Notes under the pieces: model-generated | Databases searched by the model: none | Seen by the model: the letters and a program-made list of their open reading frames with translations, nothing else | What the model was told of the DNA's origin: nothing | Assembly (NCBI GenBank): GCA_041402045.1 | Contig: JAWKSZ010000023.1 | Span: 32,837-96,836, forward strand | Source: Planctomycetota bacterium | GTDB taxonomy: Bacteria; Planctomycetota; J058 | DNA: 64,000 bases | Reading direction: 5' to 3' | Program-made: the position numbers and the translations under genes | Part shown: one piece after another, positions 4,153 through 46,255 of the stretch | How the letters are laid out: each line of letters begins with the position of its first letter | How positions within the stretch are numbered: the first letter of the stretch is position 1

Positions 4153-4221
4153 GTCGGCGCCCCCCTTCAGGCTCCAATTATGCGCAGGGGAGCGGGGGAA
4201 TTGAAGGGCGCCCCCTCTCGC

Positions 4222-4767
4222 TCAGGCCGCCTGGGCGAGGCCCAACTCCCGGGCCCAGTGCTGCATGCGCTCCTGGGAGGCGGCCTCTGGGTAGCTCGCG
4301 GCTTCCAGGGGAAAGTTCACGAGGGCGTCGGGCAGGTTCACGTGGAACACCACGGTGTAGAGCTGCACGTTCCCCGCGCGGGACCTGCCGGCGCTGACCC
4401 GGGACACGCTCACGTTCCCCGCGGCCTTCCCGGCGAACTCGACCTTGCCGAAGGGGTTCCCCCGCGCGAGCTCGAGGGCCTGGGTCTGGGTGTCGTAGCG
4501 CAGGTGGCAGGTGCCGAAGCAGGTGTCGACGAAGCCGTAGGCCGCGATCAGCGCGCCGAGGCCCGCGCCGAGGCGCACCGGGAGCGGCACGTCGGCGACC
4601 CCCACGATCCACACGCACACCCCGGCCATGACCAGGAGCAGGAACGCGGCCAGGCGCAGGCGCCCGTCGATCTCGAGGCGCTGCCCGTCGAAGCGCGTGC
4701 GACAGAGCACGATCGAGAACCGCCGCTTGCGCGGTCCCCGCCGGCTCGCCGCTCCCTCCCGGTCCAC
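4222..4767 (-). CDS. hypothetical membrane protein
   Basis: 181-aa ORF filling the gap between rho and the FHA gene on the same strand. Two hydrophobic helices. Called on composition only. Confidence 0.4.
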   Translation of the reverse strand: MDREGAASRRGPRKRRFSIVLCRTRFDGQRLEIDGRLRLAAFLLLVMAGVCVWIVGVADVPLPVRLGAGLGALIAAYGFVDTCFGTCHLRYDTQTQALELARGNPFGKVEFAGKAAGNVSVSRVSAGRSRAGNVQLYTVVFHVNLPDALVNFPLEAASYPEAASQERMQHWARELGLAQAA

Positions 4768-4776
4768 CCGCCGCTC

Positions 4777-8948: not shown

Positions 8949-8971
8949 CCCTGCCGCACGACTCGCAGCCG

Positions 8972-8999
8972 AGAGGGCCCGCCGCCGCGCGGGCCCTCT
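8972..8999 (+). terminator. GC-rich hairpin downstream of the BRCT gene
   Basis: Perfect 11-bp inverted repeat agagggcccgc/gcgggccctct with 6-nt loop, 24 nt after the stop. No U-tract. Confidence 0.45.
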
Positions 9000-9089
9000 G
9001 CATGTACGGGCGGGTCCGCCCCTGCCTGCTCCCGCCTCTCTGACGGAGCGCTGCTAGCCGCTCGCGTGCCGACGCCTCAACGAGAGGAA

Positions 9090-9116
9090 CACGGAAGACA
9101 CGGAAGACACGGAAGT
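9090..9116 (+). repeat. 9-bp tandem repeat (cacggaaga x3) in tatC upstream region
   Basis: Direct reading of the sequence. Confidence 0.7.
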
Positions 9117-9346
9117 CCCGCGGTACGTACGCGTGCCCGGTCTACACACCCCACACGGAAGCTCCGCGCGACCCAACGCTTCCTCGAGGTCTAAGCGGAG
9201 AGAGGACCCGCCCGACGCCGCGGACGAGCGCGCTCGGACGCGGGCACGGGGCGCGACCCATAACCGCGCGGTGTCCATTCAGGCGAGGCCCTGTGTGCCC
9301 TCGCAGGGGGCTATACTCAGCGTTCTGAGGCCCGGGAGGGGACCCC

Positions 9347-11202
9347 GTGAGCGACGACGACGCGACCTTCGACGACAGCCGCATGTCGATCGGATCTCAC
9401 CTCGAGGAGCTGCGCTGGCACGTGCTCAAGGCCGTGGGCTACGTGTCCATTGCCTTCGTGATCGCGTTCTACCTGCAGGGGCCCTTGCTCAAGGTGGCGC
9501 AGTGGCCCTACGAGCGCGCCGCCAAGAACGTGATCGACTCGCGCGTGATCCCCGGGGTCGACAACGACCTGCGCGACTCGCTGGTCGCGGTCGACGACGG
9601 CTACCGTCAGCTCGACCAGAGCTTGAACGAGGCGGCCAAGGACGAGCTCCTGCTCCTCGACGCCCTCGAGCCGGGGCAACTGCAGAAGGACCTCGAGCAG
9701 CTGCTCGAGCAGCAAGCGAGCCTGGGCAAGGAGATCGCCGAGCTCCAGGAGCGCTACGTCGCGCTGCTCGACGCCGACGAGGTCAGCTTCCAACAGATCC
9801 TCGACCTGCGCGCCGAGCGCGAGGGCCTGCTCGCGCAGCAGCGGCAGCTCCAGAGTGTGATCGAGGAGCGGGTGGGTCCGTTCAAGGACCGCATGGCCAA
9901 GCTCCCGCGCATGGAGCTGACCCAGATCCGGCCCCAGGAGGCGTTCCTCTCCGCGCTCAAGCTGTCCCTGGTGGTGGCCTTGTTCTGCGCCTCGCCCCTG
10001 GTCGCCCGCGAGCTGTGGAGCTTCGTGTCCAAGGGCCTCTACCACCACGAGAAGTACGATGCGCTACTGCGCCGCTGACCGTGGTCGCGTTCATGTGCGG
10101 CGCCGCCTTCGGCTACTTCGTGCTGATCCCCTACGGCGTCGAGTTCCTGATCGGCTACCTCCCGGACGTGTCGGGGAGTATCTCCTTCGGCGAGTACCTC
10201 AAGCTGTTCACCCTGCTCACCGTGCTCCTGGGCGCGGTGTTCGAGCTGCCGTTGATCATGGTGTTCCTGACCCTGATCGGCGTGGGCAGCGCCCCGCTCT
10301 ACCGGCGCTACTTCAAGTACTGGGTGCTCGCCGCCTTCGTGATCGGCGCCGTGCTCACCCCTCCCGACCCCGTGACCCAGGTGCTGATGGCGGGGCCGCT
10401 GATCGCCCTGTTCTGGGTCGGCGTGGCGGGCTCGGCCTTCGTCGGCGCTCGCGTGCGTGAGACCGACGAGGACGAGGACGAGACGCCGCCGCCGGCAACC
10501 GCCGCGCCGCCGGCGCCGGGACCCCAACCCGCGCCGAGCGCGCAGCCCGCGCCGAGCGCGCAGCCCGCGCCGAGCGCGCGGCCCGCGCCGAGTGTGCCGC
10601 CGCTGCCGGTGCTCGCTCCGCCCCAGGGAACGCGTCCGCGCAGCGACACGCCGGACGAGGACGAGGACGCGGCCACGGCGAGCGCACCGCCTGCGTCCCC
10701 GCGTCGACCGGGTCCCCCGCGTCGCCGCGGACCGACGCGGCGTCCCGCGCGGCGTGCCCCGTCACGCCCTGCGCCGTCGGGGACCGGCTCCGCGCCGTCG
10801 GGGACCGGCTCCGCGCCGCCGGGCACCGGCCCCGCGCCGTCGGGCACTGGCTCCACGCCGTCGGGCACGGGCCCTGCGGCTTCCGGTTCGGGGAGCGGCG
10901 CCGTCGAGCCTCCTGTGCCGGCGGTGCCACAGGTCACCCACGGCAGCCAGTCGCACTACACCCTCAGCTCGAGCGAGCTCGACGACCTCGCGGCCCGGCG
11001 CGCCGCCCTCGAGGCGGAGCTCATGGCCGAGGAGGAGGACGACGAGGAGTTGCCCTGGACCCCGGAGCCTGACGACGCCGACCCCGAGGAGTTCCTCGGG
11101 GAGTCGGTGGAGCAGCCGCCGCCGCCGCGCCCCGGACCGAAGCCGGGCTCCGGCGAGTTCTACGGGGACGCCGCGGAGAGCCAGGACGGCGAACCCCGGT
11201 GA
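9347..11202 (+). CDS. tatC: twin-arginine translocase subunit TatC, oversized, with apparent frameshift near 10060-10078
   Basis: Frame A (9347-10078) carries TatC N-terminus, TM1 and TM2 (SHLEELRWHVLKAVGYVSIAFVIAFYL ... SALKLSLVVALFCASPLVARELWSFVSKGLYHHEKY). Frame B (10060-11202) carries the TatC core (GAAFGYFVLIPYGVEFL, VFELPLIMVFL, LTPPDPVTQVLMAGPL) plus a ~250-aa P/A/S/G-rich tail. RBS GGGAGGGG before the GTG at 9347. Confidence 0.7.
10531..10602 (+). repeat. 18-bp tandem repeat (gcgccgagcgcgcagccc x4) encoding PAPSAQ repeats in the TatC tail
   Basis: Direct reading. Confidence 0.8.
10771..10896 (+). repeat. 21-bp tandem repeat (x6) encoding SGTGSAP repeats in the TatC tail
   Basis: Direct reading. 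Confidence 0.8.
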
Positions 11203-16430: not shown

Positions 16431-17036
16431 CTAGCTCGCGAGGGCCCACTCCGTGAGGGACTCCGCCAGCGCCTGGCGCAACGCCTGGCGCTGGTGGCGC
16501 AGCGTCCCCCGCAGGAGCTTGGCGACCTCGTCGACCAGCAGCGCCGCGAACTTGGTCACGTCCTCGGGGGCGGTGGCTCGGAGCAGGCGCTCGGTCCAAA
16601 GGGTCAACCGCGAGCCCTCGCCCAAGGGCGGGGGCGCGGTGCCTGCGCGACAGGCCTCGAGGTGCCCGAGGAGCGTGGCGAGCTCAGCGAGCAGCACGTC
16701 CTCTGCCGGCGCGGTGCTCCCGTCGAGCTCGCGCTGGGCGAGGGCGAAGGCCGCGCCCACCGCTCGGGCGGCGGCGCCGCGGACCAGGAGCGGGTAGCGC
16801 CCGAGGCGCCCCCGCCCCAACCCGCGCACCCAGGTGAGCAGGTTCGGCTCCTCGGCGAAGCCGCGGTCGCCCAGGGCGCGCTGCGCTGCCACCGAGCCCA
16901 CGTAGGCCGCGAACAGCAGCCGCGGGCGAGGGAGCGTCCCCGCCCGCACCCGCGCTTGGACCAGCTCGCGCTCGACGTCCAGGTCCCGGGTGGCCAGCCA
17001 GCGCTGCTCGAGCTCGCGCAGGCGTCGGTCGCTCAC
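16431..17036 (-). CDS. hypothetical protein
   Basis: ~201 aa. GTG overlaps the stop of the upstream WGR/DUF4132 gene (GTGA). Its stop abuts the VWA stop (tagcta). Confidence 0.5.
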   Translation of the reverse strand: MSDRRLRELEQRWLATRDLDVERELVQARVRAGTLPRPRLLFAAYVGSVAAQRALGDRGFAEEPNLLTWVRGLGRGRLGRYPLLVRGAAARAVGAAFALAQRELDGSTAPAEDVLLAELATLLGHLEACRAGTAPPPLGEGSRLTLWTERLLRATAPEDVTKFAALLVDEVAKLLRGTLRHQRQALRQALAESLTEWALAS

Positions 17037-20000
17037 CCGCGGCGCTTCTCGGCGATCGAGGCCAGGTCCCGGGCGACCTCGCTGAGCACGGTGCGGTCGA
17101 GGTCGGCCAGGGGGATCCCGGCGTCGGCCTGGAGCGAGGCGCACTCCCCGGGGCTGAGCGCGCCCTCGAGGAACAGCACGCCGTCGACGGGCTGATCCTC
17201 CTCCCACTCGAAGGGCACCACCGAGAGCCCGCCGTGCTGCAGCACCGCGGTCAGGCCCGCGCCCTCGAAGTGCTTGTAGTGCTCGCCCACGATCCCCGCG
17301 TCCTGGGGCTCGCCGCGCTGCCAGCCGCGCGTGGCGAGCAGCCCGCGCAGGGACTGGGGCGGGATCGGGACCCCGCAGGCGTGGGTCAGGCGCTGGCCCT
17401 GGAGCTCCTGGGGGTCGAGCGAGATCGCCTCGCGCTCGAGCTGGGGGAACGGGGCCAGCCGGCCCTCGCGGTCCCACAGCGCCTGCCAGGTCGCGCGCTC
17501 CTCGTCCTCCAGGTCGAGGGGGTGGAGGACTCCGACCGGGTCGTCGAGGACCCGCGGCTTCCCCGTGAGGTCCCGCGCGCCGCCGGCGTCGTCGAGGCGG
17601 AACGGGACGGGGCCCTCGGGGCCGTAGGTCGCCCACACCGTGCCGGAGGCCAGGTGTCGCAGGAGCGGGTGTTCGACGATCAAGGCCCGGAAGTCGTCGG
17701 GGCTCCAGCGCCGCTGGCCGACCATGGCCTGCTCCAGGCGCTCGCGCTGCAGCGCGAGGACGCCCTGGACCTCCTTCTTGAACGCGCGCCACTCGGCCAG
17801 GGCCTGGGGCGCGAGCTCGGGGTCGTCCTGCTTGCCCGGCTTGGGCGGGGTCTTGAGCAGCTTGCCGTCGGCGCGCTTGACCAGGGGCACCAGCTCGGGG
17901 CCCAGGCAGAAGGCGAAGCTGCGCGGACCGTAGTCGAAGCTGCGCTGGCCCTCGGCGTCGAGGCCGCAGTCCGGGACCAGGCGGTCGGCGAGCTCTTCCC
18001 GGGAGAGGCCCCGGGCGGCGGCGATCTCGTCCATGCACTCCGCCGCGCGCTGCTTCAGCGCGCGGAACTTGAGCTTCTGCGCGATCCCGGCGAGCGCGCT
18101 CAGCGCGCGCTCGCTGCCGATCGTGCGCAGGCAGTCGAGCCCGAGGACCGCGCGAGCGTGCTGGCTCTCCCCGGGCCAGGCGCGGATCAGCGGCGTGAGG
18201 CGCGCGACGGTGGCGTCGCCGCCCAGGTGCCCGAGACCCGCCAGGACCCACTTCTGCTGGGGCGGAGCGCCGTTGCGTTCCCAGGCGCTGTAGGCGCTCC
18301 AGGCGAAGGCCTCCAGGGACTCCGCGCTGGCGGCGGTCTTCAGCGCCGCGACCGCGTCCCGGCCGTCGGCCCCCACCTCGCGCAGCGCGCGCAGCGCGAG
18401 CGCGACCTGAGCTGCGTTCAGGGGCGCGCCTCCCACCCGAGGGGCCTCCAGGCGCTCGGGGCGCAGCCAGGTCGCGGCGTGCTTGCCCTTCAACGGGGCC
18501 AGCCCGGCGACGGCCTCGAAGGCGCGCTCGAGCTCGGCGGGCAAGTCCGCCGGAGGCACGTCCGCCGCCGGCTCCAGCAGCCCTGCGACCTGCTCCGCGA
18601 TCGCGGGGGCGGGGTCCTCCAGCTCGAGGGCGCGCTGGACCGTGGCCGGGGCCGCCTCGGCCAGGTCGAGCAGGGTCTCGCGCGCGTCGTCGACGGCCTC
18701 CCCGCGCGCGAGCGCGCGGATCAAGCCCCGCGCCGCGACGCCGGGGTTCTCCTCGAACCACTGCGTGACGAAGGGCAGCGCGGAGCGCTTGCTGCGCAGA
18801 GCCAAGATCGTGGGCACGAGCTCCGGGTCGCGGACCCCGCGCAGGAGCTCGAGGTAGCGGGGGAGCGAGTCCGTGGTCTGAACCAGGAGCGACTGGGTGA
18901 GCGTGGGGTAGCCCGCGCTGCCGGTGGTCGCGATCCAGGCGGCGAGCTGCTTGGGGTCGGTCACCAGGAGCTTCAGGCGTTCGGCCTCCGCGACCATGCG
19001 CTCAGCGCTCCCCAGCGCGAACAACAGGGCCTGCGGGTCCTGGGCGTAGGCGACATAGGCTCCGCGAAAACGCCCGGGGGGGAACGCGGCGAACAAGGCC
19101 TGGAGTGGCTCGACGCAGCCGAACAGCGCGGCGAAGTAGAGCACCAGGGGCCAGCGCTCCTCGTCGTCCACCGCGTGGAGGTCGAGCCCCGCGAGGTCCG
19201 CGAGGATCTGAGCTCGCATGCGCCCGCGCTCGGCGCGGCTGAGGTAGGGGAGCACCTCCTGCTGGTAGGCTTCCCGCAGCCCCATGTCGCCAAAGTTGCG
19301 CCGGGTCGGGGCGCGCCAGCTCGGCGACGTGCGCAGGCGCTCCAGGAGCAGGTCGTCGAGCTCCTGCTCCGTCAGGAACTGTCGGGTCAGGCGCAGGGCG
19401 GACACGTCGCCGAGGGCTGAGGACGGCCACACCAGGCGGTCCCAGCTCCGGTCGAGGGTCAGGTCCCCGGCGACGGTGGCCAGGTCCACGTCCTGGCCGT
19501 CGCCGACCTCCGCCGCCACCTGGATCGGGGTCCGCTCGCCGTTCACGCGGCGCAGGACCGCGTAGACGAAGCGCGCCCCCTCGGGGGTCAACGGCGGCTC
19601 GAGGGCGCGCCAACTCAGCGCGCCGACGAAGAACCCGCGATGGCCGGCGTAGTCTTCGGTGAGGCTCGCGAGGGTCGCCTCGCGGTCGAAGGGCTGCGGC
19701 GCGGGGCGCTGGAGCGGTTCAGGGTCCTGCCACAGAGGCCAGAACGCGGTCTCCTGAGAGAGGTCGAGCCTGGGCTCGAACTCGACGCTCGGGTCGACCG
19801 CGGCGGGCTTGGCCTTGGCGGAGGCGGCCTTGCGCTCGGCGGGCGGCGCTGTGGCGGGGGTGGCCTGAGCCTTACGGCCGGCGACCTTGGCCTCGGGCGC
19901 CTGCGGCTGGGCGGCCTTGCCCTTGGCCTTGGCCTTGGCAGCCTGCGGCTGGGCGGCCTTCGGCTTGGGGGACGTCGGCTCTGACGGCGGAGCGCCTGCG

Positions 20001-20221
20001 GCGTGGTCCTCGACGTAGCCCTTCTTCTGCTTCTGAGCGATCAGCTTGGTGAAGGAGGCGAGGGCCTGAGCGCTCGTGTCGAAGCCCTTGGTCTTCGTCT
20101 GTCCGGCGCTGCCGCTGCGGCCGAAGTGCACGGTGTGCGCCTCGCCGTCGAGGGTGATCGTCCAGAACTTGTCGGACGTGGCGTCCACGTAGCGGAAGCT
20201 GCGCGTGTGGGTCTCGGGCAC
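17033..20221 (-). CDS. MolR-like protein: N-terminal WGR domain, A/K/P-rich linker, C-terminal DUF4132-like region
   Basis: 1062 aa. WGR signature (DKFWTITLDG...HFGRSGSAGQTKTKGF...QKQKKGYVE). GTG start preceded by GAGGAGGAG. Confidence 0.8.
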   Translation of the reverse strand: MPETHTRSFRYVDATSDKFWTITLDGEAHTVHFGRSGSAGQTKTKGFDTSAQALASFTKLIAQKQKKGYVEDHAAGAPPSEPTSPKPKAAQPQAAKAKAKGKAAQPQAPEAKVAGRKAQATPATAPPAERKAASAKAKPAAVDPSVEFEPRLDLSQETAFWPLWQDPEPLQRPAPQPFDREATLASLTEDYAGHRGFFVGALSWRALEPPLTPEGARFVYAVLRRVNGERTPIQVAAEVGDGQDVDLATVAGDLTLDRSWDRLVWPSSALGDVSALRLTRQFLTEQELDDLLLERLRTSPSWRAPTRRNFGDMGLREAYQQEVLPYLSRAERGRMRAQILADLAGLDLHAVDDEERWPLVLYFAALFGCVEPLQALFAAFPPGRFRGAYVAYAQDPQALLFALGSAERMVAEAERLKLLVTDPKQLAAWIATTGSAGYPTLTQSLLVQTTDSLPRYLELLRGVRDPELVPTILALRSKRSALPFVTQWFEENPGVAARGLIRALARGEAVDDARETLLDLAEAAPATVQRALELEDPAPAIAEQVAGLLEPAADVPPADLPAELERAFEAVAGLAPLKGKHAATWLRPERLEAPRVGGAPLNAAQVALALRALREVGADGRDAVAALKTAASAESLEAFAWSAYSAWERNGAPPQQKWVLAGLGHLGGDATVARLTPLIRAWPGESQHARAVLGLDCLRTIGSERALSALAGIAQKLKFRALKQRAAECMDEIAAARGLSREELADRLVPDCGLDAEGQRSFDYGPRSFAFCLGPELVPLVKRADGKLLKTPPKPGKQDDPELAPQALAEWRAFKKEVQGVLALQRERLEQAMVGQRRWSPDDFRALIVEHPLLRHLASGTVWATYGPEGPVPFRLDDAGGARDLTGKPRVLDDPVGVLHPLDLEDEERATWQALWDREGRLAPFPQLEREAISLDPQELQGQRLTHACGVPIPPQSLRGLLATRGWQRGEPQDAGIVGEHYKHFEGAGLTAVLQHGGLSVVPFEWEEDQPVDGVLFLEGALSPGECASLQADAGIPLADLDRTVLSEVARDLASIAEKRRG

Positions 20222-33124: not shown

Positions 33125-35561
33125 TCAGCCGCCTCCGCGCAATTGGAGCAGCATTCGGCGCGCCGTGGGGTGCTTCGGGTCACGCCGCAGCGCCTCTCGG
33201 AGGGCGGCCAACGCCGGCTCCCGGCGCCCCGCGGCGGCGTGCAGCCGCGCCGCGTAGGTCAGCGCCAGGACCTCCTCGGGGTCCGCCGCGGTCGCGCGGT
33301 CCCAGGCCTCGAGCGCGCCCTCAGGGTCCCCCGCGCGCTCCAGGGCCACGCCCAGGTCGCGCCAGTTGGCGCCGTCGGGGGCCAGCGCGACCAAGCGCCG
33401 GTAGGCCTCCACCGCGGGACCGTAGGCCTCGGCCAGGAAGCGCACCTCCCCCAGCCGAGCCCAAGCGGCCGCGAGGGCAGGGTCGGCCTCCGTGCTCGCC
33501 AGGAGCCAGCGCTCGGCGGTGGGGTAGTCGGCCTCGAGCCGGGCTGCGTTGCCGCGGTAGAAGCTGGCCAGGGCTGGCTCGAGCGCGGGGCCAAAGCGCG
33601 CCACCGCCCGACGCAGGGCGACCGGGTCCTCGGCGGCCTCGGCGGCTGCGAGGAGGTTCACCCGCGCGCGCAGCGCGGTCTCGGGGTCGGGGTCCCGGTC
33701 CAGGGCCGCGCCGTAGGCGACGAGGGCCGCGCGAGCTTCGCCGCGGCCCATGGCCAACGCCGCCAGCAGGAGGTGCCTCGCGCGCGCTGAGCGCGGTCGC
33801 GACCCAGCGTGACGCCAGCTCCTGGGCGCGCTGGGGGTCGCCGAACAGGCGCTCGAGCTCCGCCGCCGCCTCGAGCACGACGGGGTCCTCGGGGGCGAGG
33901 GCCAGCGCGCCGCGGGCCAGCTCCAGGCCCCGGGCGCCTTCGCCCAGGGCCGGCAGCGCGCGGGCGAGGTGCAGGCGCAGGCGCGGGTGGATCCCGCGCC
34001 GCGGGAGCAGGGTCAGCCCGCGCAGGACCGAGCTCGCCCGAGCCTCGTCGGGGAACGGCGGCTCGCGGCGCCGCGGCGGCGAAGACCGGGGACCGCGCTC
34101 GAAGACCCAGGCCTTGGGCCCCACGTAGCGCACGCTCCAGACCGGGTCGGCGACCAGGGCCTCCAGCAGGAGCGGGGAGTGCTCACGGGGATCGAGGAGC
34201 GCGCTCTGGAACCCTGCCTCGCTCAGGCGCGCGCCGAGCGCGCGCGGGTCTCCGTCGAGCAGCGCGCGGTAGGCCGCGAAGTGCGACCGGGGGTAGAGGT
34301 CGAGGTTGCCGCATATGTAAGGGCGCTGACCGGCGAACAGCAGGTAGTGCCCGGCGCTGAACCCGTTGAACAGGGGCTCCGGGGGCGGGTCGCGCTCCCA
34401 GTCGGCCAGGGCCTCGGGGTAGGCCTTGAACTCCACGCGGCCCCAGCCGGCGGGAGCGTCGAGCTGCGGGTTCTGGTGGAAGCGGTCGTCGACGGTGGCG
34501 CGCGCGAGGAGGAAGGCGAGGCCGCCCAGGGCCACGTAGGCGGGATCGCGGCGCGCGCCGCGCAGCAGCCCACGCGCGAGCAGCGCGAGCCCGGGGCCGC
34601 TGAGCGTGATCAGCCCCAGGGCGGCCAGCGGCAGGGTGCGCGCGTAGGGCGCGCCGAGGACCACCAGCGCCAGCGCCGCGCCAGCGCGGTCCAGCTCCAG
34701 CCGACCGGAGCGCCAGCCGATCCAGGCCAGGGGCAGGCTCAGAACGCACCAGCCCACGAGGAGCAACACCAGCGGCTGCCCCCAGCCCGCGCTCCAGGGC
34801 GCCGCGAGCTCGGCGATCGGCAGGCGCTCGCGCCCCAGCGCGTCCAGCGCGATCCGGGGGAGGTAGCCCAGGGTGCCCAAGGGGTAGGGAGTCAGCGCGC
34901 AGCAGCCGAGGAGCACCCCCGCGGCCACGGCCCAGCCACGCCAGGCGCGCCCGCCGAGGGCCGCGACGGCCGCGCGCAGCCCGAGCAGCGCCGGCCCGAG
35001 CAGCGCGAACCCGTGGGCGTTGGCCCACAGCACCTGCACCGCCGCGGCGGCGCCCAGCCGCCGGCCCGCGGGAGCACGACGCCAGCCGAGGTGCCAGGCG
35101 AGGACGAGGAAGGTCACGAGCTCGGGGCGGACCACGAAGCGTGGACCCGCGAGGACCACGAACGGGATCGCGAGCGCCCAGCGCGCCAGCCCAGGGATCG
35201 GCCGCAGCACGAGCCAGGACAGGAGCAGGACGGCGAGGCCCTTGGCCGCGCCCAGGAGCCGCGCCCCGCCCAGCGCGTCCAGCGCGGCCACGGCGAGCTG
35301 GAACAGCCACTCGGGGTCTACGAAGGCGCGCTCGGCCCCGCCCTGGAGGAAGACGTCGTGGCGGGGGAAGCCGTGCTCGAGGATCCAGCGCGCGCAGGCC
35401 AGGTGGAAGTAGAGGTCGGGTTGGGCGTCGGGCCGGGCGCACCAGGCGACGAGCAGGAGCGCGACCGCCGCCAGGCAGAATCCCCGGGCCGCGCGTGAGG
35501 GCCAGCCACGGACTCCGTCCAAGGAAGGTGAGCGGGGAGGAGCCTCGGCCGACGAAGTCAC
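33125..35561 (-). CDS. GT-C-like polytopic membrane protein with C-terminal TPR domain; reading frame switches near 33760-33790
   Basis: The 35561-33770 frame encodes >10 TM helices and then begins TPR-like helices (…QRAQELASRWVATALSARE). The TPR domain continues in the +1 frame (33757-33125, …AMGRGEARAALVAYGAALDRDP…). GTG at 35561 is a guess. Confidence 0.5.
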
Positions 35562-35852
35562 GCGACGGATTGTGCACTGGATGCGGCCCCGCCGGTATCC
35601 CGGACTGGGGACGCCCGCGACCTCCAACCAGGCCAGCGCGCGGTGACGCGCCCGGGGGTGCGCCCGAGGGGCGTTGGCCCCGACCCGCCTTCCTGAGAAA
35701 CTTTCTCCGGAGTCGAGCTGGCAGGGGGTTGCGTCGTACGGGGGCCGGCTCGGACCGGCCCGGCGCGCGGGCTCGGCCGGCCCTCCCATCTCGGGGCCGC
35801 CTCGGACCGGCTCCGCGGCGACGGAATCCCTTACGCCTCGGGTTCGCTCCGC

Positions 35853-35882
35853 TTGACAGCACCCGATCGGCGGTGCTAAATA
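35853..35882 (+). promoter_or_regulatory. sigma70-like promoter (TTGACA-N18-TAAATA) upstream of the MglA-family cluster
   Basis: Consensus -35 and near-consensus -10 in a locally AT-richer stretch ~85 nt upstream of the ATG at 35969. Confidence 0.45.
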
Positions 35883-35968
35883 ACCCTAAGCTGAGCAGGG
35901 ATTTCTGCTCCTTCACGGGAAACCCTCGGCGCCTCAGAGGCGCCGGGACAGCGGTTGGGCGGGCCCCC

Positions 35969-37063
35969 ATGGGCTTGTGGGCGAACTTCAAGGCGAATCG
36001 CGAGCTGGCCGAAGCCAGGCGGGACGTGGCACGCGCGCGCTCGCCGTACTCGATCGCTCAGTTCATCGACAAATGCATCGAGCTCGGTCGGCTCGATCAG
36101 GCCTTCGAGGACGCCGAGAAAGGGATCCAGGAGTTCCCCGAGTCGGAGTCGCTGCAGGAGGCCTACAAGCGCATGATCCGCGCCAAGTGCGCGGACGACC
36201 TCAAGGCCTACCGCGACGAGATCCGCACCTCCCCCGGCCCGAAGGCGTATTACCGGCTCGCGTGCCTCTACAAGGAAATGCGCGACCTGGACCAGGCCGT
36301 CGAGCTCGCGCGCAAGGGCATGGAGGACTACCCCAACTTCGAGGGCAACTACATCGTGCTCGCGGACCTGCGCTACGAGCGCTTCCAGCGTGACCTGCGC
36401 GCGTCCGACGGGCTCGAGGCGACCCAACTGTTCGAGAAGGCGGTGGACCTCAACGGCGAGAACTACCGCCTGCTGTTCCAGTTGGCCGAGATCTACCGCG
36501 CGATCGGGGCGCGCGACCACGCGATCGCCAAGGTCAAGATGATCTTGAACTTCGCCCCCGACGACCGCAACGCGCTGAACCTGCTGGCCCAGCTCAAGAG
36601 CGCCAAGGCCCCCAAGAGCAACGACCTCAAGGAGATCCTCCAGGACTTCGAGCGTCGGGCCGCGGCAGGCAACTTCCGCCAGCAGGGCCAGCTCTCGGCG
36701 CGTTACCTGGCCAACCCCGACCAGCTCGAGCGCAAGCTGCCGAGCCTGGACCGCATGCCGGGCTTCCAGCGCGTGGTCGTGCTCGGTCCCCACGGCGAGC
36801 TGTTGGCCGCCCACCCCGGCGGCGCTCAGGGCAACCGCAACGAGGCGGACACGCTGAAGAAGATGTTCGCGGCGGCGATCGATTGCTCGCTGCGCATGGA
36901 CATCTCCACCTTCGAGAAGGGCTTGTTCGAGTCCGAGGCTGGGTTTACCTACCTGGTCGTCGCCGACTCCTTGCAAATCGCCGTGCTCTCGAACACGAAG
37001 GTGAAGAAGGAAAAACTACGACAGGACGTGCACCGCTTTGTGGAGCACGACCTCTACATCTAG
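35969..37063 (+). CDS. TPR-repeat protein with C-terminal Roadblock/LC7-like domain
   Basis: 364 aa. N-terminal TPR-like helices. C-terminal ~110 aa (GFQRVVVLGPHGELLAAH...FTYLVVADSLQIAVLSN) fit the Roadblock pattern. Confidence 0.7.
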   Translation: MGLWANFKANRELAEARRDVARARSPYSIAQFIDKCIELGRLDQAFEDAEKGIQEFPESESLQEAYKRMIRAKCADDLKAYRDEIRTSPGPKAYYRLACLYKEMRDLDQAVELARKGMEDYPNFEGNYIVLADLRYERFQRDLRASDGLEATQLFEKAVDLNGENYRLLFQLAEIYRAIGARDHAIAKVKMILNFAPDDRNALNLLAQLKSAKAPKSNDLKEILQDFERRAAAGNFRQQGQLSARYLANPDQLERKLPSLDRMPGFQRVVVLGPHGELLAAHPGGAQGNRNEADTLKKMFAAAIDCSLRMDISTFEKGLFESEAGFTYLVVADSLQIAVLSNTKVKKEKLRQDVHRFVEHDLYI

Positions 37064-37093
37064 GATCGAATCGGGAGACCGCAGTCGGCAGGC

Positions 37094-37444
37094 ATGCAAT
37101 CCATTCTCTCTGCACTGAATCAGGTCGCTGGCGTCAAGGGCAGCATGGTCGTCACCAAGGACGGTGTGGTGGTGGCCGAGGTCCTCGGTCCCGACCTGCG
37201 CAAAGAGGTGGTGGCCGCCGTCTCCTCCCACATGATTCAGGTCAGCGCCCGCTCGCTTGAGGACCTCGGCCGAGGTACCCTGGAGCGCGTGGCCGTGACC
37301 TCTGCCCACGGACGCATGGTGTTCGTGAACCTGGACGTGGGCTACCTGGTCGTGATCACCAAGATGGAGATGAAGCTCGGGCAAGTGCTCATCGAAGTCG
37401 AATCGGCTGCGCGGAAGATCAAGCAGCTACACAGCAGGATCTGA
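37094..37444 (+). CDS. Roadblock/LC7-domain protein (short MglB-like)
   Basis: 116 aa. GVKGSMVVTKDGVVVAEV...GYLVVITKM pattern. Confidence 0.8.
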   Translation: MQSILSALNQVAGVKGSMVVTKDGVVVAEVLGPDLRKEVVAAVSSHMIQVSARSLEDLGRGTLERVAVTSAHGRMVFVNLDVGYLVVITKMEMKLGQVLIEVESAARKIKQLHSRI

Positions 37445-37535
37445 GGGTGGAGGCTTCCGACACCCAAGGGGCGGGATGGTAACGAGGGCTGCGCCGAACC
37501 AGCTCAGCACTCGGTGACCGTGGAGTAGAGCCAGA

Positions 37536-38579
37536 ATGGTCCAGATCAACTTCGCCAAGCGCGAAATCAACTGCAAGCTCGTGTACTACGGGCCGGGGTT
37601 GTCGGGGAAGACCACCAACCTCGAGGTCGTGCACAAGAAGGCACCGGCCTCGAAGAAGGGTGAGCTGACCTCGATCGCCACCGAGGGCGATCGCACCCTG
37701 TTCTTCGACTACATGCCGCTCGAGCTGGGCAAGGTCGGCGGCATGAACACGAAGTTCCAGTTGTACACGGTGCCGGGCCAGGTCTACTACAACGCCACCC
37801 GTAAGCTCGTGCTCCAGGGCGCGGACGGGGTGGTGTTCGTCGCGGACTCCCAGCCCGACAAGATGGACGAGAACATCGAGAGCTTCCAGAACCTGGAGGA
37901 GAACCTGAGGGAGCAGGGCCTGCAGCCCGAGACGATCCCCATGGTCCTGCAGTGGAACAAGCGCGACTTGCCCAACGTCTGCGACGTCAGCGAGCTCGAC
38001 AAGAAGCTCAACAAGTACAACAGCCCGACCTTCGAGGCCGTCGCGGTCACCGGCGAGGGGGTGTTCCCCACCCTCAAGAAGCTGGCGCAGATGGTGCTCG
38101 AGAAGCTCAACAAGGAGTACGGGCTCAACCCCGACAAGAAGGGCGAGGCGGGCAAGAAGGAGACCGCGGCGGCGCCGGCGGCCAAGCCGGAGCCGAAGCC
38201 GGAGCCCAAGCCCGAGCCCAAGCCCGAGCGTCGCCCGGAGCCGAAGCCCGAGCCCGTCGCCGAGCGGCGAGCGGAGCCGAAGCCGGAGCGGCGGGCGGAG
38301 CCGAAGCCCGAGCGGCGCGAGCCTGCGCCGCTGCCCAGCGGCAACCGCAAGCCTCAGGGCTACGACATCGGGAGCGGCGCGCTGCCGCCTCCGCCCAAGA
38401 AGGGCGGCGGCAAGGGCCTGATGATCGTGATGCTCCTGATCCTGGTGGTGGCCGGGGCGTTCATCGGCGGCGGCTATACGGGTAAGCTGGAGCAGGCGGT
38501 GCCTGCGCTCCAGAAGTTCTACGACGACAAGCTCGCACCCACCCTCGGCGGCGGCTCCCAGAGCGCCGGCGGGGAGTAG
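37536..38579 (+). CDS. MglA-family small GTPase with C-terminal PEPK-repeat linker and transmembrane helix
   Basis: First ~195 aa align closely to MglA (GPGLSGKTT, TDRTLFFDY, TVPGQ, NKRD, AVTGEGV). Followed by (PEPK)n/ERRAEPKP repeats, then LMIVMLLILVVAGAFIGGGY and a short tail. Confidence 0.9.
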   Translation: MVQINFAKREINCKLVYYGPGLSGKTTNLEVVHKKAPASKKGELTSIATEGDRTLFFDYMPLELGKVGGMNTKFQLYTVPGQVYYNATRKLVLQGADGVVFVADSQPDKMDENIESFQNLEENLREQGLQPETIPMVLQWNKRDLPNVCDVSELDKKLNKYNSPTFEAVAVTGEGVFPTLKKLAQMVLEKLNKEYGLNPDKKGEAGKKETAAAPAAKPEPKPEPKPEPKPERRPEPKPEPVAERRAEPKPERRAEPKPERREPAPLPSGNRKPQGYDIGSGALPPPPKKGGGKGLMIVMLLILVVAGAFIGGGYTGKLEQAVPALQKFYDDKLAPTLGGGSQSAGGE

Positions 38580-38621
38580 GCCCGAGACACGCAACCGTCC
38601 AGCACGGAAGAGGACATACTC

Positions 38622-39137
38622 ATGGGCGCGAGTGAGACCGATCGCAAGCTGCGTAAGGCTCGCCTCATCTTCTATGAAGACGACGTCGAGCGGATCAACA
38701 AGGCGCTGGAGAACTACCAGAACCTCTCCAAGTCGCGCTGCAACATGCTGATCGACGTCGAGGGGCACCCGGTCACCCAGGTCGGATCCACCGAGGGCAT
38801 CAACCTCGAGACCATCGCCGCCCTGGTGGCGGCGTCCTTCGCCGCCACCAAGGAGGTGGCGAAGATCCTGGGCGAGGCCGAGTTCAGCAGCCTGACCCAC
38901 CAGGGCAAGCACGAGAGCATTCAGCTCTCGCTGGTAGGCGACCGCACGATCCTGGCCACGATCTTCGACTCCGAGGAGACGACGATCGGCATGGTCATGT
39001 TCTACACCAAGGAGTTGGTGGAGAAGCTGGCCGGGATCTTCGCCGAGATCGGCAACCGCAAGGACATGAAGCAGGGCGTGTTCGAACCCATGGAAGACAT
39101 GGAGAGCGTGATCGACGACCTGTTCGGCGACGTCTAG
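38622..39137 (+). CDS. mglB: MglB-like Roadblock GTPase-activating protein
   Basis: 171 aa. Collinear with MglB, including the acidic C-terminal helix (EPMEDMESVIDDLFGDV). RBS GGAAGAGGA. Confidence 0.85.
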   Translation: MGASETDRKLRKARLIFYEDDVERINKALENYQNLSKSRCNMLIDVEGHPVTQVGSTEGINLETIAALVAASFAATKEVAKILGEAEFSSLTHQGKHESIQLSLVGDRTILATIFDSEETTIGMVMFYTKELVEKLAGIFAEIGNRKDMKQGVFEPMEDMESVIDDLFGDV

Positions 39138-39191
39138 GGTCTCCGCGTCCGAGCTCGACACCAGCCCCGCGCGTGAGCGCGGGGCTGTGCC

Positions 39192-39980
39192 ATGTACGGG
39201 GCCGCCGGAACCTGGACAAACGAAGCGGGGTCCGGCACCCTGAGCCCCATGGACGAACCCGCCGCTCACGGTCGCCAGCGCCTCAAGGGCGCCTTCCTCG
39301 CCGCCGCTGCGGTGAGCCTGCTCCTGAACCTCGTGCCCTTCGGGCGCTACGCGCTCTACCCCTTCGGGCTCCTGGCCACCTGGGCCCACGAAATGGGACA
39401 CGGACTCTCCGCGCTCTGCCTCGGGGGCGAGTTCCGTCAGCTCGTGCTGTTCTCGAACCTCGGCGGCTACGCGACCCACACCGCCACGGGCTTCCTGCGC
39501 TCGCCCCTGGTCGCCATGGGCGGACTCCTGGGGCCCGCGGTCGCCGGCGCGGCGGTGATCGTGTGCAGCGCGCGCTCCGAGCGCGCGGCCCGGCTGACCC
39601 TGGGCCTGGTCGTGGGCGCGATCGCGCTCTCGGTGCTGGTGTGGATCCGGCCGCTGTTCGGCTTCGGCTTCGTGGGCATGCTCCTGATCGCGGTCGCCCT
39701 GGGCGCGGTCGCGCTCAGGGGGCACGAGCTCCTGGAGCTGTTCATGACCCAGTTGATCGGGATCCAGCTCTGCCTGGGGAGCCTCAGCAGCTTCGACTAC
39801 ATGTTCACCCGCGACTTCATGCGGGACGGTCAGCGGCTGGAGTCGGACACCCAGGCGATCGCCAACCACTGGCTGCTGCCCTACTGGCTGTGGGGGGCCC
39901 TGATCGCCGCCGCCTCGCTGGCGATCCTGTTGGGCGCCTTCTACCTGGCCTGGGTCCGCCCCGAGCGCAAGCGCGCCTGA
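39192..39980 (+). CDS. polytopic membrane protein with HExxH motif (putative intramembrane zinc metalloprotease)
   Basis: 262 aa. TWAHEMGHGLSA inside a hydrophobic segment, ~6 TM helices. An alternative ATG at 39249. Confidence 0.65.
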   Translation: MYGAAGTWTNEAGSGTLSPMDEPAAHGRQRLKGAFLAAAAVSLLLNLVPFGRYALYPFGLLATWAHEMGHGLSALCLGGEFRQLVLFSNLGGYATHTATGFLRSPLVAMGGLLGPAVAGAAVIVCSARSERAARLTLGLVVGAIALSVLVWIRPLFGFGFVGMLLIAVALGAVALRGHELLELFMTQLIGIQLCLGSLSSFDYMFTRDFMRDGQRLESDTQAIANHWLLPYWLWGALIAAASLAILLGAFYLAWVRPERKRA

Positions 39981-39989
39981 GCGCCGGAG

Positions 39990-40286
39990 CTACTCCTCGA
40001 CGAAGTCGCCGGTGTGGTCGGCGGTGCCCAGCTCCGCGTTGAAGGCCGCCACGAGCTTGGCGAGGGCCTCCTGCTGGTCGACCTTGTGGGCGTGGCGCAG
40101 GGCCCGGGCGATGTGCTGGGCCACGTCGGCCAGGAGCGTGCCCCAGGCCGCCTCGGCGTCCTGTCCGGGGCCCCACTGGCCCACGTCGAAGCTGCAGTGC
40201 AGGCGGCGCTCCGCGATGAACGCGCAGAGCATCTCCCGCGAGTGGGGGTCGGAGATCGCGGGGGCGGGCACGGTCAGGCGCTTCAT
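39990..40286 (-). CDS. hypothetical small protein
   Basis: 98-aa ORF downstream of, and co-directional with, the ALDH gene. Called on composition only. Confidence 0.4.
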   Translation of the reverse strand: MKRLTVPAPAISDPHSREMLCAFIAERRLHCSFDVGQWGPGQDAEAAWGTLLADVAQHIARALRHAHKVDQQEALAKLVAAFNAELGTADHTGDFVEE

Positions 40287-40316
40287 TCGGGCTCCTTGCT
40301 CAGCTCGGCGGGGATC

Positions 40317-41921
40317 CTACCCCGACTCGCCGCGGACCACGCGGGACGCGTCGGTGTCCTTGAGCTGCTCGAACAGGGCGCGCTGCGGGCCCACGTCGCT
40401 GGCCGCGACCACCAGCGGGATCGAGAACACCTCCAGGGCCTCGGTCACCGAGAGCGTCTGGATCGCGGAGTTCTTGCGCCCGGCGAAGGGGAAGGTGTCG
40501 GGGCCGCGCTGACACTGGCGGTTCACGTTGATCCGGCACACCTGGTTCGCCAGCGCGTCCACCGTGGTCCCGACCTCGTCCGGGTCCTCGCCGAACACGC
40601 TCACCTGCTGCCCGTAGGAGCTGGCGGAGATCGCCTCCCACACCTCCGACGGGTCGTCGAAGGGCACCACGGGGACCAGGGGCCCGAACTGCTCCAGGTC
40701 GTAGAGCACGGCGTGCTCGGCGACCGGGTAGAGCACCGCCGGGAAGTAGAAGGTCTCGAGGTGCTGCCCGCCGCGGGCGTTGACCACCCGCGCGCCCTTG
40801 CGCACCGCGTCCTGGACCATGGCGTCCAGGGTCTGGGCCTTGTGGGGCTCTGGCAGCGGGGTCAGGGAGACCCCGGACTGCCACATCAGCCCTGGCACCA
40901 GCGCGTCGACCTGGGCCGCCAGGCGCTCCACGAAGGCGTCGGCCAGGCTGCGGTGCACGAAGATCAACTTGAGCGCGGTGCAGCGCTGCCCGTTGAAGCT
41001 CAACGAGCCCTGGAGCACCTGGTCGACGGCCAGGTCCAGGTTCGCGCTCTCGAGCACGATCGCCGGGTTCTTGGCGTCCATGCCCAGCACGCTGTGCAGG
41101 CGATAGGGCGCCGGGTGCTGCTTCTCGATGATCCCCGCCACGCGGCTCGAGCCAATGAACGCGAACACGTCGATCAGCCCGGACTGCATCAGCGGACCCA
41201 CGAGGGTCGCGCCGTCGCCCTGGAGCACGTTGACCACCCCGGGCGGGAAGCAGGCGGCGAAGTCCTCGAGCAGGGGCAGGTTCGAGAGTTGGCCGAACTT
41301 GGGGAGCTTGACCACCGCGGTGTTGCCCATGAGCAGCGCCGGGATCAGGGTCGTGAAGTTCTCGTTCAGGGGGTAGTTGAAGGGCCCCATGCACAGGCAC
41401 ACCCCGATCGGGCTGCGCCGAACCTGGGCCACCACGCCGCCCTCGCAGCGCATGTCGCCCTCGGTGTAGGGCGAGATCGCGGCCAGGGTGTCGTCGATGT
41501 ACTCCAGGGTGCGGTCGAACTCCTTGCGCGCGTCGCCGAGGGTCTTGCCGATCTCCCACATCAGCAGACGCACGACCTCGTCGCGCTTGGTGCGCATGCG
41601 CGCGGCGAAGGCGCGCACCGCCTCCGCGCGCTGAGCCAGGCGCATGCGCGGCCACTCCCCGCGGCCGCGATCCCAGGCGGCGCAGGCCGCGGCGAGCGCC
41701 GCCCGCGCGCAGTCGGCGTCGAGCTCGGCGGCGTGGCCGATCACGCGCCGGGTCAGTCCGCCCTCGCCGTCGGGTTCGCACACGACGGAGAGCACGGGGG
41801 TCGTGGGACCGTCCCAGCGCTTGATCTCGCCCCCGATCAGGTAGGCGTCGGCCAGCTCGTAGTCCGGCTGCTCGAACTCGGGCGGGATCGGGCCGGCGAA
41901 GATCGCGTCCAGCTCGCTCAT
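40317..41921 (-). CDS. aldehyde dehydrogenase family protein
   Basis: ~534 aa from ATG 41921. ALDH-like catalytic region (…NGQRCTALK…). The ORF track start at 41975 is also possible. Confidence 0.85.
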   Translation of the reverse strand: MSELDAIFAGPIPPEFEQPDYELADAYLIGGEIKRWDGPTTPVLSVVCEPDGEGGLTRRVIGHAAELDADCARAALAAACAAWDRGRGEWPRMRLAQRAEAVRAFAARMRTKRDEVVRLLMWEIGKTLGDARKEFDRTLEYIDDTLAAISPYTEGDMRCEGGVVAQVRRSPIGVCLCMGPFNYPLNENFTTLIPALLMGNTAVVKLPKFGQLSNLPLLEDFAACFPPGVVNVLQGDGATLVGPLMQSGLIDVFAFIGSSRVAGIIEKQHPAPYRLHSVLGMDAKNPAIVLESANLDLAVDQVLQGSLSFNGQRCTALKLIFVHRSLADAFVERLAAQVDALVPGLMWQSGVSLTPLPEPHKAQTLDAMVQDAVRKGARVVNARGGQHLETFYFPAVLYPVAEHAVLYDLEQFGPLVPVVPFDDPSEVWEAISASSYGQQVSVFGEDPDEVGTTVDALANQVCRINVNRQCQRGPDTFPFAGRKNSAIQTLSVTEALEVFSIPLVVAASDVGPQRALFEQLKDTDASRVVRGESG

Positions 41922-46177: not shown

Positions 46178-46250
46178 GCAGCCATAGCTCAGTTGGTTAG
46201 AGCGCCTGATTGTGGATCAGGAGGTCGCCGGTTCGAATCCAGCTGGCTGT
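46178..46250 (+). tRNA. tRNA-His (anticodon GTG), atypical acceptor end
   Basis: Manual cloverleaf: acceptor GCAGCCA/TGGCTGT (G1-U72), D arm GCTC/GAGC, anticodon stem CCTGA/TCAGG with loop TTGTGGA, T arm GCCGG-TTCGAAT-CCAGC (one C-A mismatch). Discriminator A73. Base -1 is C. No encoded CCA. Confidence 0.75.
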
Positions 46251-46255
46251 ATGCG

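Follow-up and report, generated by a model that had tools for sequence, protein, structure and literature searches.

Among bacterial Ras-like switches MglA is the best understood, and the mechanism established for it depends on a soluble protein that moves between the cell poles. How would such a switch operate if the same G domain were permanently tied to a membrane? The question is raised by a locus in the 64,000-nt stretch of DNA from a Planctomycetota bacterium analyzed here (the window; GenBank assembly GCA_041402045.1, contig JAWKSZ010000023.1, positions 32,837 to 96,836 of the forward strand), and by thousands of metagenomic homologues in which the G domain likewise appears to be tethered. 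An earlier, sequence-only reading had described five closely spaced, co-directional genes at this locus: a tetratricopeptide repeat (TPR) protein ending in a Roadblock domain, a short Roadblock protein, an MglA-family GTPase with a membrane anchor, an MglB orthologue and an HExxH membrane protease. All five open reading frames (ORFs), called g1 to g5 here, are present on the + strand at 35969-39980 (364, 116, 347, 171 and 262 aa, separated by 30, 91, 42 and 54 nt, in that order). To find relatives, GTDB species representatives were scanned once, and ORFs of the 80 best loci were then called and searched with phmmer (loci carry numbers beginning with L). From the analysis as a whole we consider it likely that the locus encodes an MglA/MglB switch tethered to the membrane, and that g1 and g2 form an extra Roadblock platform which links it to other partners.

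An MglA-type GTPase with a predicted C-terminal membrane anchor

The central gene of the locus, g3, has four parts:

37536-38579, + strand: g3, long MglA, 347 aa
37536-38123, + strand: G domain, residues 1-196 (alignment to M. xanthus MglA)
38124-38414, + strand: linker, residues ~197-293, low-complexity and rich in Pro, Lys, Glu and Ala (composition; Tandem Repeats Finder)
38415-38477, + strand: C-terminal transmembrane (TM) helix, residues ~294-314, GLMIVMLLILVVAGAFIGGGY (hydropathy)
38478-38579, + strand: post-TM tail of 33 aa, predicted to be periplasmic, and stop codon

Over 194 residues (3-196), the alignment of g3 with Myxococcus xanthus MglA is free of gaps (E 8e-73, 59% identity). This region contains the P-loop G19-T27 (GPGLSGKTT), R53, T78-V-P-G-Q82 and N141-K142-R-D144, and these motifs are invariant in 18 diverse family members. 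The replacement of the conserved G3 Asp by Thr78 is a hallmark of MglA (PMC3000849). A Pfam match to Gtr1_RagA is confined to the G domain (9.8e-5). The catalytic roles of R53 and Q82 are known from MglA structures. By all sequence criteria except a single-domain, soluble architecture, g3 thus belongs to group 1 of the MglA family.

The G domain is followed by a linker in which 25 of 94 residues are Pro, 14 are Lys and 14 are Glu. Within it, the stretch at 38184-38313 consists of 10.8 copies of a 12-nt tandem repeat, AAGCCCGAGCCG, which translates as KPEP (Tandem Repeats Finder). Homologues of g3 range from 290 to 514 aa, with linkers that vary freely in sequence and length. Because the linkers of relatives are built from other repeats, such as (REERPA)n in L086, linker length is probably hypervariable. 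The KPEP linker of g3 also recalls the Glu-Pro/Lys-Pro spacer of TonB.

Beyond the linker, the segment GLMIVMLLILVVAGAFIGGGY reaches a Kyte-Doolittle value of 2.63 over 19 residues and is the sole such segment in g3. The sequence KKGGGK lies immediately N-terminal to it, on the predicted cytoplasmic side. Nearly all of the 120 best homologues share an equivalent C-terminal hydrophobic helix (116 proteins), and those that lack it are 4 truncated entries. As the linkers are wholly different among homologues and yet the helix is retained, we regard it as probably a real tail anchor rather than the product of read-through; hydropathy, flanking lysines and helix conservation all fit the features of a tail anchor. 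Taken together with the match to MglA, these data support the description of g3 as an MglA-family GTPase with a probable C-terminal membrane anchor.

The N-terminal G domain would be in the cytoplasm and the tail in the periplasm, because there is no signal peptide, GTP is needed, and lysines precede the helix. The tail carries a motif, GKL...YD..L.P.LGGG (GKLEQAVPALQKFYDDKLAPTLGGG..., 38478-38576), that is common to the window's subclade (homologues P0001, P0003, P0006 and P0012), and in other Planctomycetota subclades the post-TM tail is just 3-9 aa long. The 33-aa tail of g3 may be a periplasmic contact motif.

Sister lineages carry a chemically different putative tether

The TM-helix form of long MglA is found in Planctomycetota only, with Brocadiia excepted. 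Long MglAs from Zixibacteria, Ignavibacteria, Fibrobacterota, Chitinivibrionales and Brocadiia lack a TM helix and end, after a disordered linker, in a polybasic amphipathic C-terminus. Examples are KPGFLKRLFGNK, KKRGFFKRLFGLK, KKRSFFKKLFGIK, KKKGFFDGLFKKEK, KKGFFDGLFKK, PLFKKFKKFL and ...PGFLKRLFGNK, and in Brocadiia PLFKKFKKFLDEK. The membrane-targeting sequence of Escherichia coli MinD is KGFLKRLFGG (PMC5471200), and the helical hydrophobic moments of the amphipathic C-termini are about the same as that of this motif. The resemblance extends to sequence, in that C-termini of relatives from the Fibrobacterota-Chlorobiota-Bacteroidota (FCB) group, such as PGFLKRLFGN, are nearly identical to it. 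However, the motif sits on another protein family in MinD, and g3 of the window has a TM helix instead. The presence of two chemically different anchors in sister lineages provides strong comparative evidence that membrane attachment of long MglA is functional.

A C-terminal sorting signal of the PEP-CTERM or GlyGly-CTERM kind was also considered for the end of g3 and was rejected, since g3 lacks an N-terminal signal peptide, its domain is that of a cytoplasmic GTPase, and the sister lineages use an amphipathic motif.

A four-gene set conserved in Planctomycetota and FCB-group bacteria

Three arrangements of mglA were found among the 80 best loci. The first is the canonical one, mglB followed by an mglA of 194-196 aa, in Myxococcota, Desulfuromonadota, Acidobacteriota and others. 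The second, in Gemmatimonadota, consists of a Roadblock gene, mglB and an anchorless MglA of 200 aa (L023, L025, L036, L046, L058, L068, L073, L078 and L082); in some of these (L023, L025 and L082) a TPR-Roadblock gene is found farther upstream. The third consists of a Roadblock gene, a long MglA (290-645 aa) and MglB, usually with TPR-Roadblock upstream; its hosts are Planctomycetota, Brocadiia, Zixibacteria, Ignavibacteria, Fibrobacterota and Chitinivibrionales.

The window belongs to the third arrangement. The order TPR-Roadblock, Roadblock, long MglA, MglB is present in every Planctomycetota locus examined that is long enough to show it (L001, L002, L004-L009, L011, L012 and L085-L087). 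A g2-type gene lies directly 5' of the GTPase gene across Planctomycetota and FCB-group loci, and the MglB gene directly follows the long GTPase gene in 13 of 14 Planctomycetota loci, with g4 starting 42 nt 3' of g3. The arrangement is thus conserved elsewhere, as a four-gene set in Planctomycetota and FCB-group loci. By contrast, the expectation that the system would belong to Myxococcota did not hold: the lineage is Planctomycetota, the source being a metagenome-assembled genome (MAG) of an uncultured bacterium, and the homologues of g3 with a named source are nearly all "Planctomycetota bacterium" MAGs.

In Zixibacteria and Ignavibacteria, the module has one more gene, for a protein that begins with 3-4 TM helices and ends in a Roadblock domain (Robl_LC7 1.9e-8 and 2.5e-5); the gene lies at L015 4713-5663, L018 4654-5640, L024 4581-5642, L026 4201-5190, L029 4725-5663 and L030 4603-5613. 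This addition brings the number of Roadblock-domain proteins to as many as four per module. No such polytopic TM-Roadblock protein was found in the window or in the Planctomycetota loci, where only the Roadblock parts of other genes were matched.

All-against-all ORF clustering covered 14 loci around the module, and the only families that recurred were the four core genes and a PATAN protein. The latter, of ~1050 aa, comprises a PATAN-type N-terminus (PF14332/DUF4388), TPRs and a PQQ-like beta-propeller. Its gene immediately precedes the module in 8 Planctomycetota loci (L002, at 3251-6400, L006-L009, L011, L012 and L017) but was not found in the window. Genes for a secretin (L086) and a T2SSE ATPase (L004) were each seen once near the module. 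Orphan long MglA-like proteins of 301-533 aa, with no adjacent Roadblock genes, were seen in Thermoanaerobaculia/Acidobacteriota (L039, L041, L044, L063, L079 and L083); they share a C-terminal motif, ...GLVKEV..PLNLS..EL..H..L.L.ITLDVN.LP.

Three Roadblock-domain proteins accompany the GTPase

The other three members of the conserved set are the following:

35969-37063, + strand: g1, TPR-Roadblock protein, 364 aa, cytoplasmic (Pfam, AlphaFold2, Foldseek, hhalign)
37094-37444, + strand: g2, single-domain Roadblock/LC7 protein, 116 aa (Pfam Robl_LC7, 5.6e-11)
38622-39137, + strand: g4, MglB orthologue, 171 aa, with a Roadblock core, a C-terminal helix and an acidic tail

The N-terminal ~235 residues of g1 form a TPR solenoid (Pfam TPR_19, 3.8e-11), and the protein has no hydrophobic segment. 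Its full-length AlphaFold2 (AF2) model has a predicted local distance difference test (pLDDT) score of 89. In AF2 models, residues ~238-364 (nt 36680-37060) adopt a Roadblock/LC7 fold (pLDDT 92.5) with the topology alpha-beta-beta-alpha-beta-beta-beta-alpha. When this C-terminal model was compared with the PDB by Foldseek, all 50 of the 50 hits shown were Roadblock proteins or Roadblock-containing complexes, among them a Thorarchaeota Roadblock protein (7f8m, TM-scores 0.77/0.81), LAMTOR2/p14 and M. xanthus MglB. The domain also aligns in register with the g2 family in hhalign (72% probability, E 3e-5), and Zixibacteria TPR-Roadblock homologues of g1 give weak Pfam Robl_LC7 matches (3.6e-4 and 1.6e-3). 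Pfam and NCBIfam found no Roadblock match in the last ~125 residues of g1 itself, and a PDB profile search with the alignment of its C-terminal domain was not significant (best Roadblock match E 0.99); the domain call therefore rests on fold evidence. On that evidence, with weak support from sequence, g1 is indeed a TPR protein that ends in a Roadblock domain.

The short Roadblock protein g2 is directly recognized by Pfam. Its closest solved relatives are Asgard Roadblocks (7yh1, 2.4e-11; 2e-18 with the g2 family profile) and dynein LC7. Matches to MglB (E 0.01) and of LAMTOR2 to the g2 family profile (E 0.03) are weaker. At residues 21-23, g2 carries K-D-G, and a D-G pair is the signature of the MglC-type clade of orphan MglB paralogues (McLoon et al., PMC4719450). 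Neither g2 nor its family profile matched a PDB chain named MglC at E <= 1, although the presence of the MglC entry in the searched copy is unconfirmed.

Residues 14-169 of g4 match M. xanthus MglB (6izw_B, E 9e-21), C-terminal helix and acidic tail included, and g4 also matches Thermus thermophilus MglB (1e-13) and Pfam Robl_LC7 (1.5e-9). The NCBIfam MglB model gives 8e-22, but at 78 bits against an equivalog cutoff of 200 bits, which marks g4 as a divergent MglB orthologue. It bears D-x-x-G, the signature of the MglA-coupled MglB clade (PMC4719450), and from its sequence it is presumed to be the GTPase-activating protein (GAP) of g3. These results agree with the earlier proposal of a clear MglB orthologue, and of three Roadblock-domain proteins around the GTPase, namely the C-terminus of g1, g2 and g4.

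A clade apart from canonical MglA

In a neighbour-joining (NJ) tree of G domains (195 columns), the MglAs of the second and third arrangements, together with some of the orphan long forms, make up one clade apart from all canonical MglA (bootstrap 99/100). The GTPase is thus phylogenetically distinct from canonical MglA, as had been anticipated. Both MglA types are present in at least one Gemmatimonadota MAG (VSDC01, L036 together with L055, a canonical mglBA pair), and the split between them is thus a deep paralogous one; Thermoanaerobaculia/Acidobacteriota likewise include both. The window has no MglA, MglB or Roadblock gene besides those of the module, and there is no short canonical mglA from Planctomycetota among the best 80 GTDB loci, so that the g3 type may be the sole copy in that phylum.

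These last observations bear on the strongest alternative, that these Planctomycetota have no other MglA/MglB polarity module and that this one is ordinary. It would then be an orthologue, not a specialised paralogue, with the same job as in Myxococcus or Thermus, and its lineage-specific tail and MglC-like accessories would leave the logic unchanged. We regard this as possible but unlikely. The near-MglA G domain with all of its catalytic residues kept speaks for it, as do the lack of a second copy in the window and the fact that no Planctomycetota canonical gene appears among the best 80 loci even though many other phyla are represented there. In addition, MglC-type Roadblock genes beside mglBA have been reported in a few genomes (PMC4719450), and coupling of group 1 mglA to a pair of mglB-like genes has been noted in a few cases (PMC4316618; McLoon et al., PMC4719450). 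Against it stand the well-supported separate clade and the coexistence with a canonical copy in the Gemmatimonadota MAG, as well as the inverted gene order, with mglB downstream. Moreover, the Myxococcus mechanism is defined by relocation through the cytosol, which a permanent anchor would not allow, and the tether is kept in two chemically distinct forms across phyla.

A proposed membrane-confined switch

We therefore return to the membrane-tethered MglA/MglB switch with an additional Roadblock platform. The G domain of g3 would be held in the cytoplasm on a flexible or polyproline II-like leash of ~100 residues, with g4, as its cognate MglB, serving as a Roadblock-dimer GAP. We propose that g2 and the Roadblock domain of g1 pair, probably as a heterodimer, to form a second Roadblock platform, because the genes are co-conserved and Roadblock domains habitually pair. 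This platform would regulate or position the GTPase/GAP pair, and the TPR half of g1 would recruit other proteins to it. Since the GTPase would be unable to leave the membrane, signalling would be local, in place of a Myxococcus-style cytosolic relocation from pole to pole. The switch would act through two-dimensional diffusion and the local GTP/GDP state at a membrane site such as a pole, a bud or an envelope machine.

As to output, our best guess, by analogy, is polarity or type-IV-pilus-like surface machinery, which is weakly indicated by the MglA precedent and by the PATAN protein upstream in many relatives. In cyanobacteria, the motor of the type IV pilus is a target of PATAN response regulators (bioRxiv 10.1101/2021.06.11.447907).

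Several points weigh against this reading. Internal nodes of the NJ tree are weak (70/100 for Planctomycetota with Brocadiia and 26/100 for Planctomycetota, Brocadiia and the FCB group, on the same 195 columns). The 14-locus clustering revealed no conserved effector gene around the module. In our reading of the alignment, g4 has Glu at the position of G68 in M. xanthus MglB, which we take to be an MglA-contact residue, changed in the GAP-dead A64R/G68R mutant; the MglA-MglB interface may thus differ. The TM call for g3 is based on hydropathy and conservation, and we infer the GTPase and GAP activities, membrane insertion, topology and g1-g2 pairing.

The downstream membrane protease is a lineage-specific neighbour

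The fifth gene follows g4 on the same strand:

39192-39980, + strand: g5, Peptidase_M50B-like polytopic HExxH membrane protein, 262 aa (Pfam PF13398)

The match of g5 to PF13398 (1.5e-35, 123 bits against a cutoff of 26 bits), the sequence HEMGH and four hydrophobic segments are consistent with the HExxH membrane protease expected here. Its true start is probably at 39249 (243 aa), because relatives are 245-246 aa long and the 262-aa version is absent from the protein collection.

The sequence-only reading had counted g5 as part of a five-gene module and suggested the protease as effector of the GTPase switch. Consistent with this, g5 begins 54-111 nt after g4 on the same strand with no terminator-like site between them, and the same adjacency recurs in L085. 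However, an M50B gene follows the MglB gene in just three close loci, the window, L085 (whose g1 is 97% identical) and L001, and in L001 an alpha/beta-hydrolase gene intervenes between the two. Next to the module of L002, L004, L086, L087 and the remaining Planctomycetota and FCB-group loci examined, no M50B gene is present. Furthermore, the DUF5076, aldehyde dehydrogenase and enoyl-CoA hydratase/3-hydroxyacyl-CoA dehydrogenase genes downstream travel with the M50B gene, as in ordinary local synteny. As the adjacency is confined to three loci, g5 is best described as a lineage-specific neighbour; the conserved set comprises four genes rather than five, an effector role finds no comparative support, and we judge a five-gene system with a protease effector to be highly improbable.

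A family with missing gene records

The exact g1, g2 and g4 proteins are recorded at NCBI under a Planctomycetota MAG as MEZ6186133.1, MEZ6186134.1 and MEZ6186135.1. The exact sequence of g3 is missing from the protein collection, and the consecutive accessions of g2 and g4 leave no number for it. Similarly, the annotation of GCA_050250455.1 (L086) passes from the Roadblock gene to the MglB gene with no gene call in the interval, yet an intact 391-aa ORF (MVQINF...TM) is present there at 8716-9891. The g3 family thus looks to be systematically dropped by annotation pipelines in some records.

Although the missing records and the 12-nt tandem repeat in the linker could suggest that the long g3 ORF is an artefact or decaying gene, in which the repeat and the hydrophobic end would be read-through into non-coding or frameshifted sequence beyond a soluble MglA of ~195 aa, this is extremely improbable, given that GC content at third codon positions (GC3) is 0.96 across the whole ORF, like that of its neighbours, that the frame stays open through the TM helix in 116 of 120 homologues despite wholly different linkers, that the post-TM tail motif is conserved in the subclade, and that the intact L086 ORF has the same architecture.

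Missing records in at least two NCBI MAGs may help to explain how the family stayed unnoticed, together with the size limit of the main survey of prokaryotic Ras-like GTPases, which was restricted to proteins of <= 240 aa and listed no Planctomycetes (Wuichet and Sogaard-Andersen, PMC4316618). In the literature searchable here, which is incomplete, we found no description of an anchored MglA, of the four-gene set or of a TPR-Roadblock partner. The set is apparently widespread and uncharacterised.

Comparison with known GTPase systems

The closest characterized system is MglA/MglB, in some cases with MglC, of M. xanthus and T. thermophilus. Its GTPase is of the same G-domain family as g3, with Thr78, Arg53, Gln82 and NKxD; in both, the GTPase gene is adjoined by a cognate MglB with a C-terminal helix, and the extra small Roadblock g2 has the D-G signature. 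The M. xanthus and T. thermophilus MglA is a soluble protein of ~195 aa, whereas g3 has 347 aa with a proline-rich spacer and a TM helix, and mglB lies upstream there and downstream here. No similarity of g2 to M. xanthus MglC was detected in the PDB searches, and g2 is closest to Asgard and dynein-type Roadblocks. Further differences from the canonical module are the TPR-Roadblock fusion g1 in the set and the separate clade; RomR and RomX were not seen nearby. The long MglA modules of Zixibacteria, Ignavibacteria, Fibrobacterota and Brocadiia share the gene order, disordered linker and tree clade of the window, but have a MinD-like amphipathic anchor in place of the TM helix, and those of Zixibacteria and Ignavibacteria add the polytopic membrane Roadblock protein.

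A resemblance to eukaryotic Rag GTPases on the Ragulator complex (LAMTOR1-5) had also been drawn. This stands as a fair analogy, a membrane-held small GTPase with several Roadblock-fold proteins, and the g1 domain superposes on LAMTOR2 (TM-score ~0.73). It does not stand as architectural homology. Rags have a C-terminal Roadblock domain of their own and heterodimerise, whereas the C-terminal half of g3 is linker and TM helix only; lacking its own Roadblock domain, g3 is not of the Rag type. In Ragulator the anchor is the lipidated subunit LAMTOR1; in the present module it would be part of the GTPase. Sequence similarity is at the superfamily level only.

Ras and Rab proteins share with g3 the order of G domain, variable unstructured linker and C-terminal anchor, but their anchor is a prenyl group, whereas here it is a protein helix or an amphipathic motif. 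The polybasic and hydrophobic C-terminus of the FCB-group proteins is similar in logic to the polybasic tail of K-Ras. Another small GTPase with a TM anchor is the signal recognition particle receptor subunit beta (SR-beta), whose partner is the longin/Roadblock-like SRX domain. Its anchor is N-terminal and it belongs to the Arf-like branch, so that g3, with a C-terminal anchor and a place in the MglA branch, is not SR-beta. JGI labels homologues as "signal recognition particle receptor subunit beta", which we assume to be a generic name for the orthologous group and not evidence of orthology.

Actinobacterial conservons (CvnA-D; group 2 MglA) are likewise multi-gene operons with an MglA-family GTPase, a Roadblock protein and a membrane component. 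However, the G domain of g3 is of the group 1 type with canonical NKxD, and the membrane link is on the GTPase itself. Neither a CvnA histidine kinase nor CvnC/DUF742 is present among g1-g5 and the flanking genes, and for this reason the locus is not a conservon.

The operating logic implied by the anchored module differs from that of soluble MglA, in that a membrane-confined switch would be governed by a multi-Roadblock regulatory platform, a bacterial parallel to the anchored eukaryotic GTPases that are regulated on Roadblock/longin platforms. A much broader reading would be that Planctomycetota and FCB-group bacteria own an ancient GTPase system built like the membrane GTPases of eukaryotes, from a G domain, a hypervariable linker and an anchor, and that it is a distinct and undescribed class of membrane-identity or polarity switch by which particular sites on the membrane are marked or organised. 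On this reading, control would be multi-Roadblock, by MglB together with the TPR-Roadblock/Roadblock pair and, in some phyla, the polytopic membrane Roadblock protein. We consider this broader reading quite doubtful. If true, it may bear on the unusual envelope, budding and membrane invaginations of Planctomycetota, and on the origin of Roadblock/longin platforms for membrane GTPases.

Operon structure, upstream block and neighbouring genes

The tight co-directional spacing of g1-g5 fits a single operon, with no terminator-like site on the + strand within the cluster. Regional GC is ~62-72%, and the GC3 of g2-g5 (0.83-0.96) is similar to that of neighbouring genes. One further feature lies upstream of g1:

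35853-35915, + strand: promoter-like element and conserved 5' leader (direct reading; comparison with L001)

A consensus-like promoter had been proposed here. A perfect -35 element, TTGACA, is present at 35853-35858, and the ~60-nt block that begins with it is near-identical in the relative L001 (~3915-3980), where the flanking intergenic DNA has diverged on both sides. The candidate -10 element, TAAATA (35877-35882), matches at 3 of 6 positions and follows TTGACA after 18 nt that contain an inverted repeat, GCACC/GGTGC; 3' of it are a hairpin, CCCTAAGCTGAGCAGGG, and ATTTCTGCTCC. A sigma-70 scan of 35500-40400 gave zero qualifying sites. The -35 element and the conservation of the block thus stand, and the complete consensus promoter does not; in view of the negative scan, we call the element only a conserved TTGACA-containing block, whose function may be that of a promoter and operator or of a 5' leader.

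On the other side of this block is a large divergent ORF (33321-35789, - strand) with many hydrophobic stretches and no Pfam family at E <= 0.001. Its homologues, of 771 aa in L001 and 840 aa in L086, give weak TPR matches, and it adjoins the module in the window's subclade only. Two further genes of the window are unrelated to the module, one for a 1061-aa WGR and DUF4132 protein (17033-20221, - strand) and a tRNA gene (46178-46251, + strand), which was the sole match in an Rfam scan of the window.

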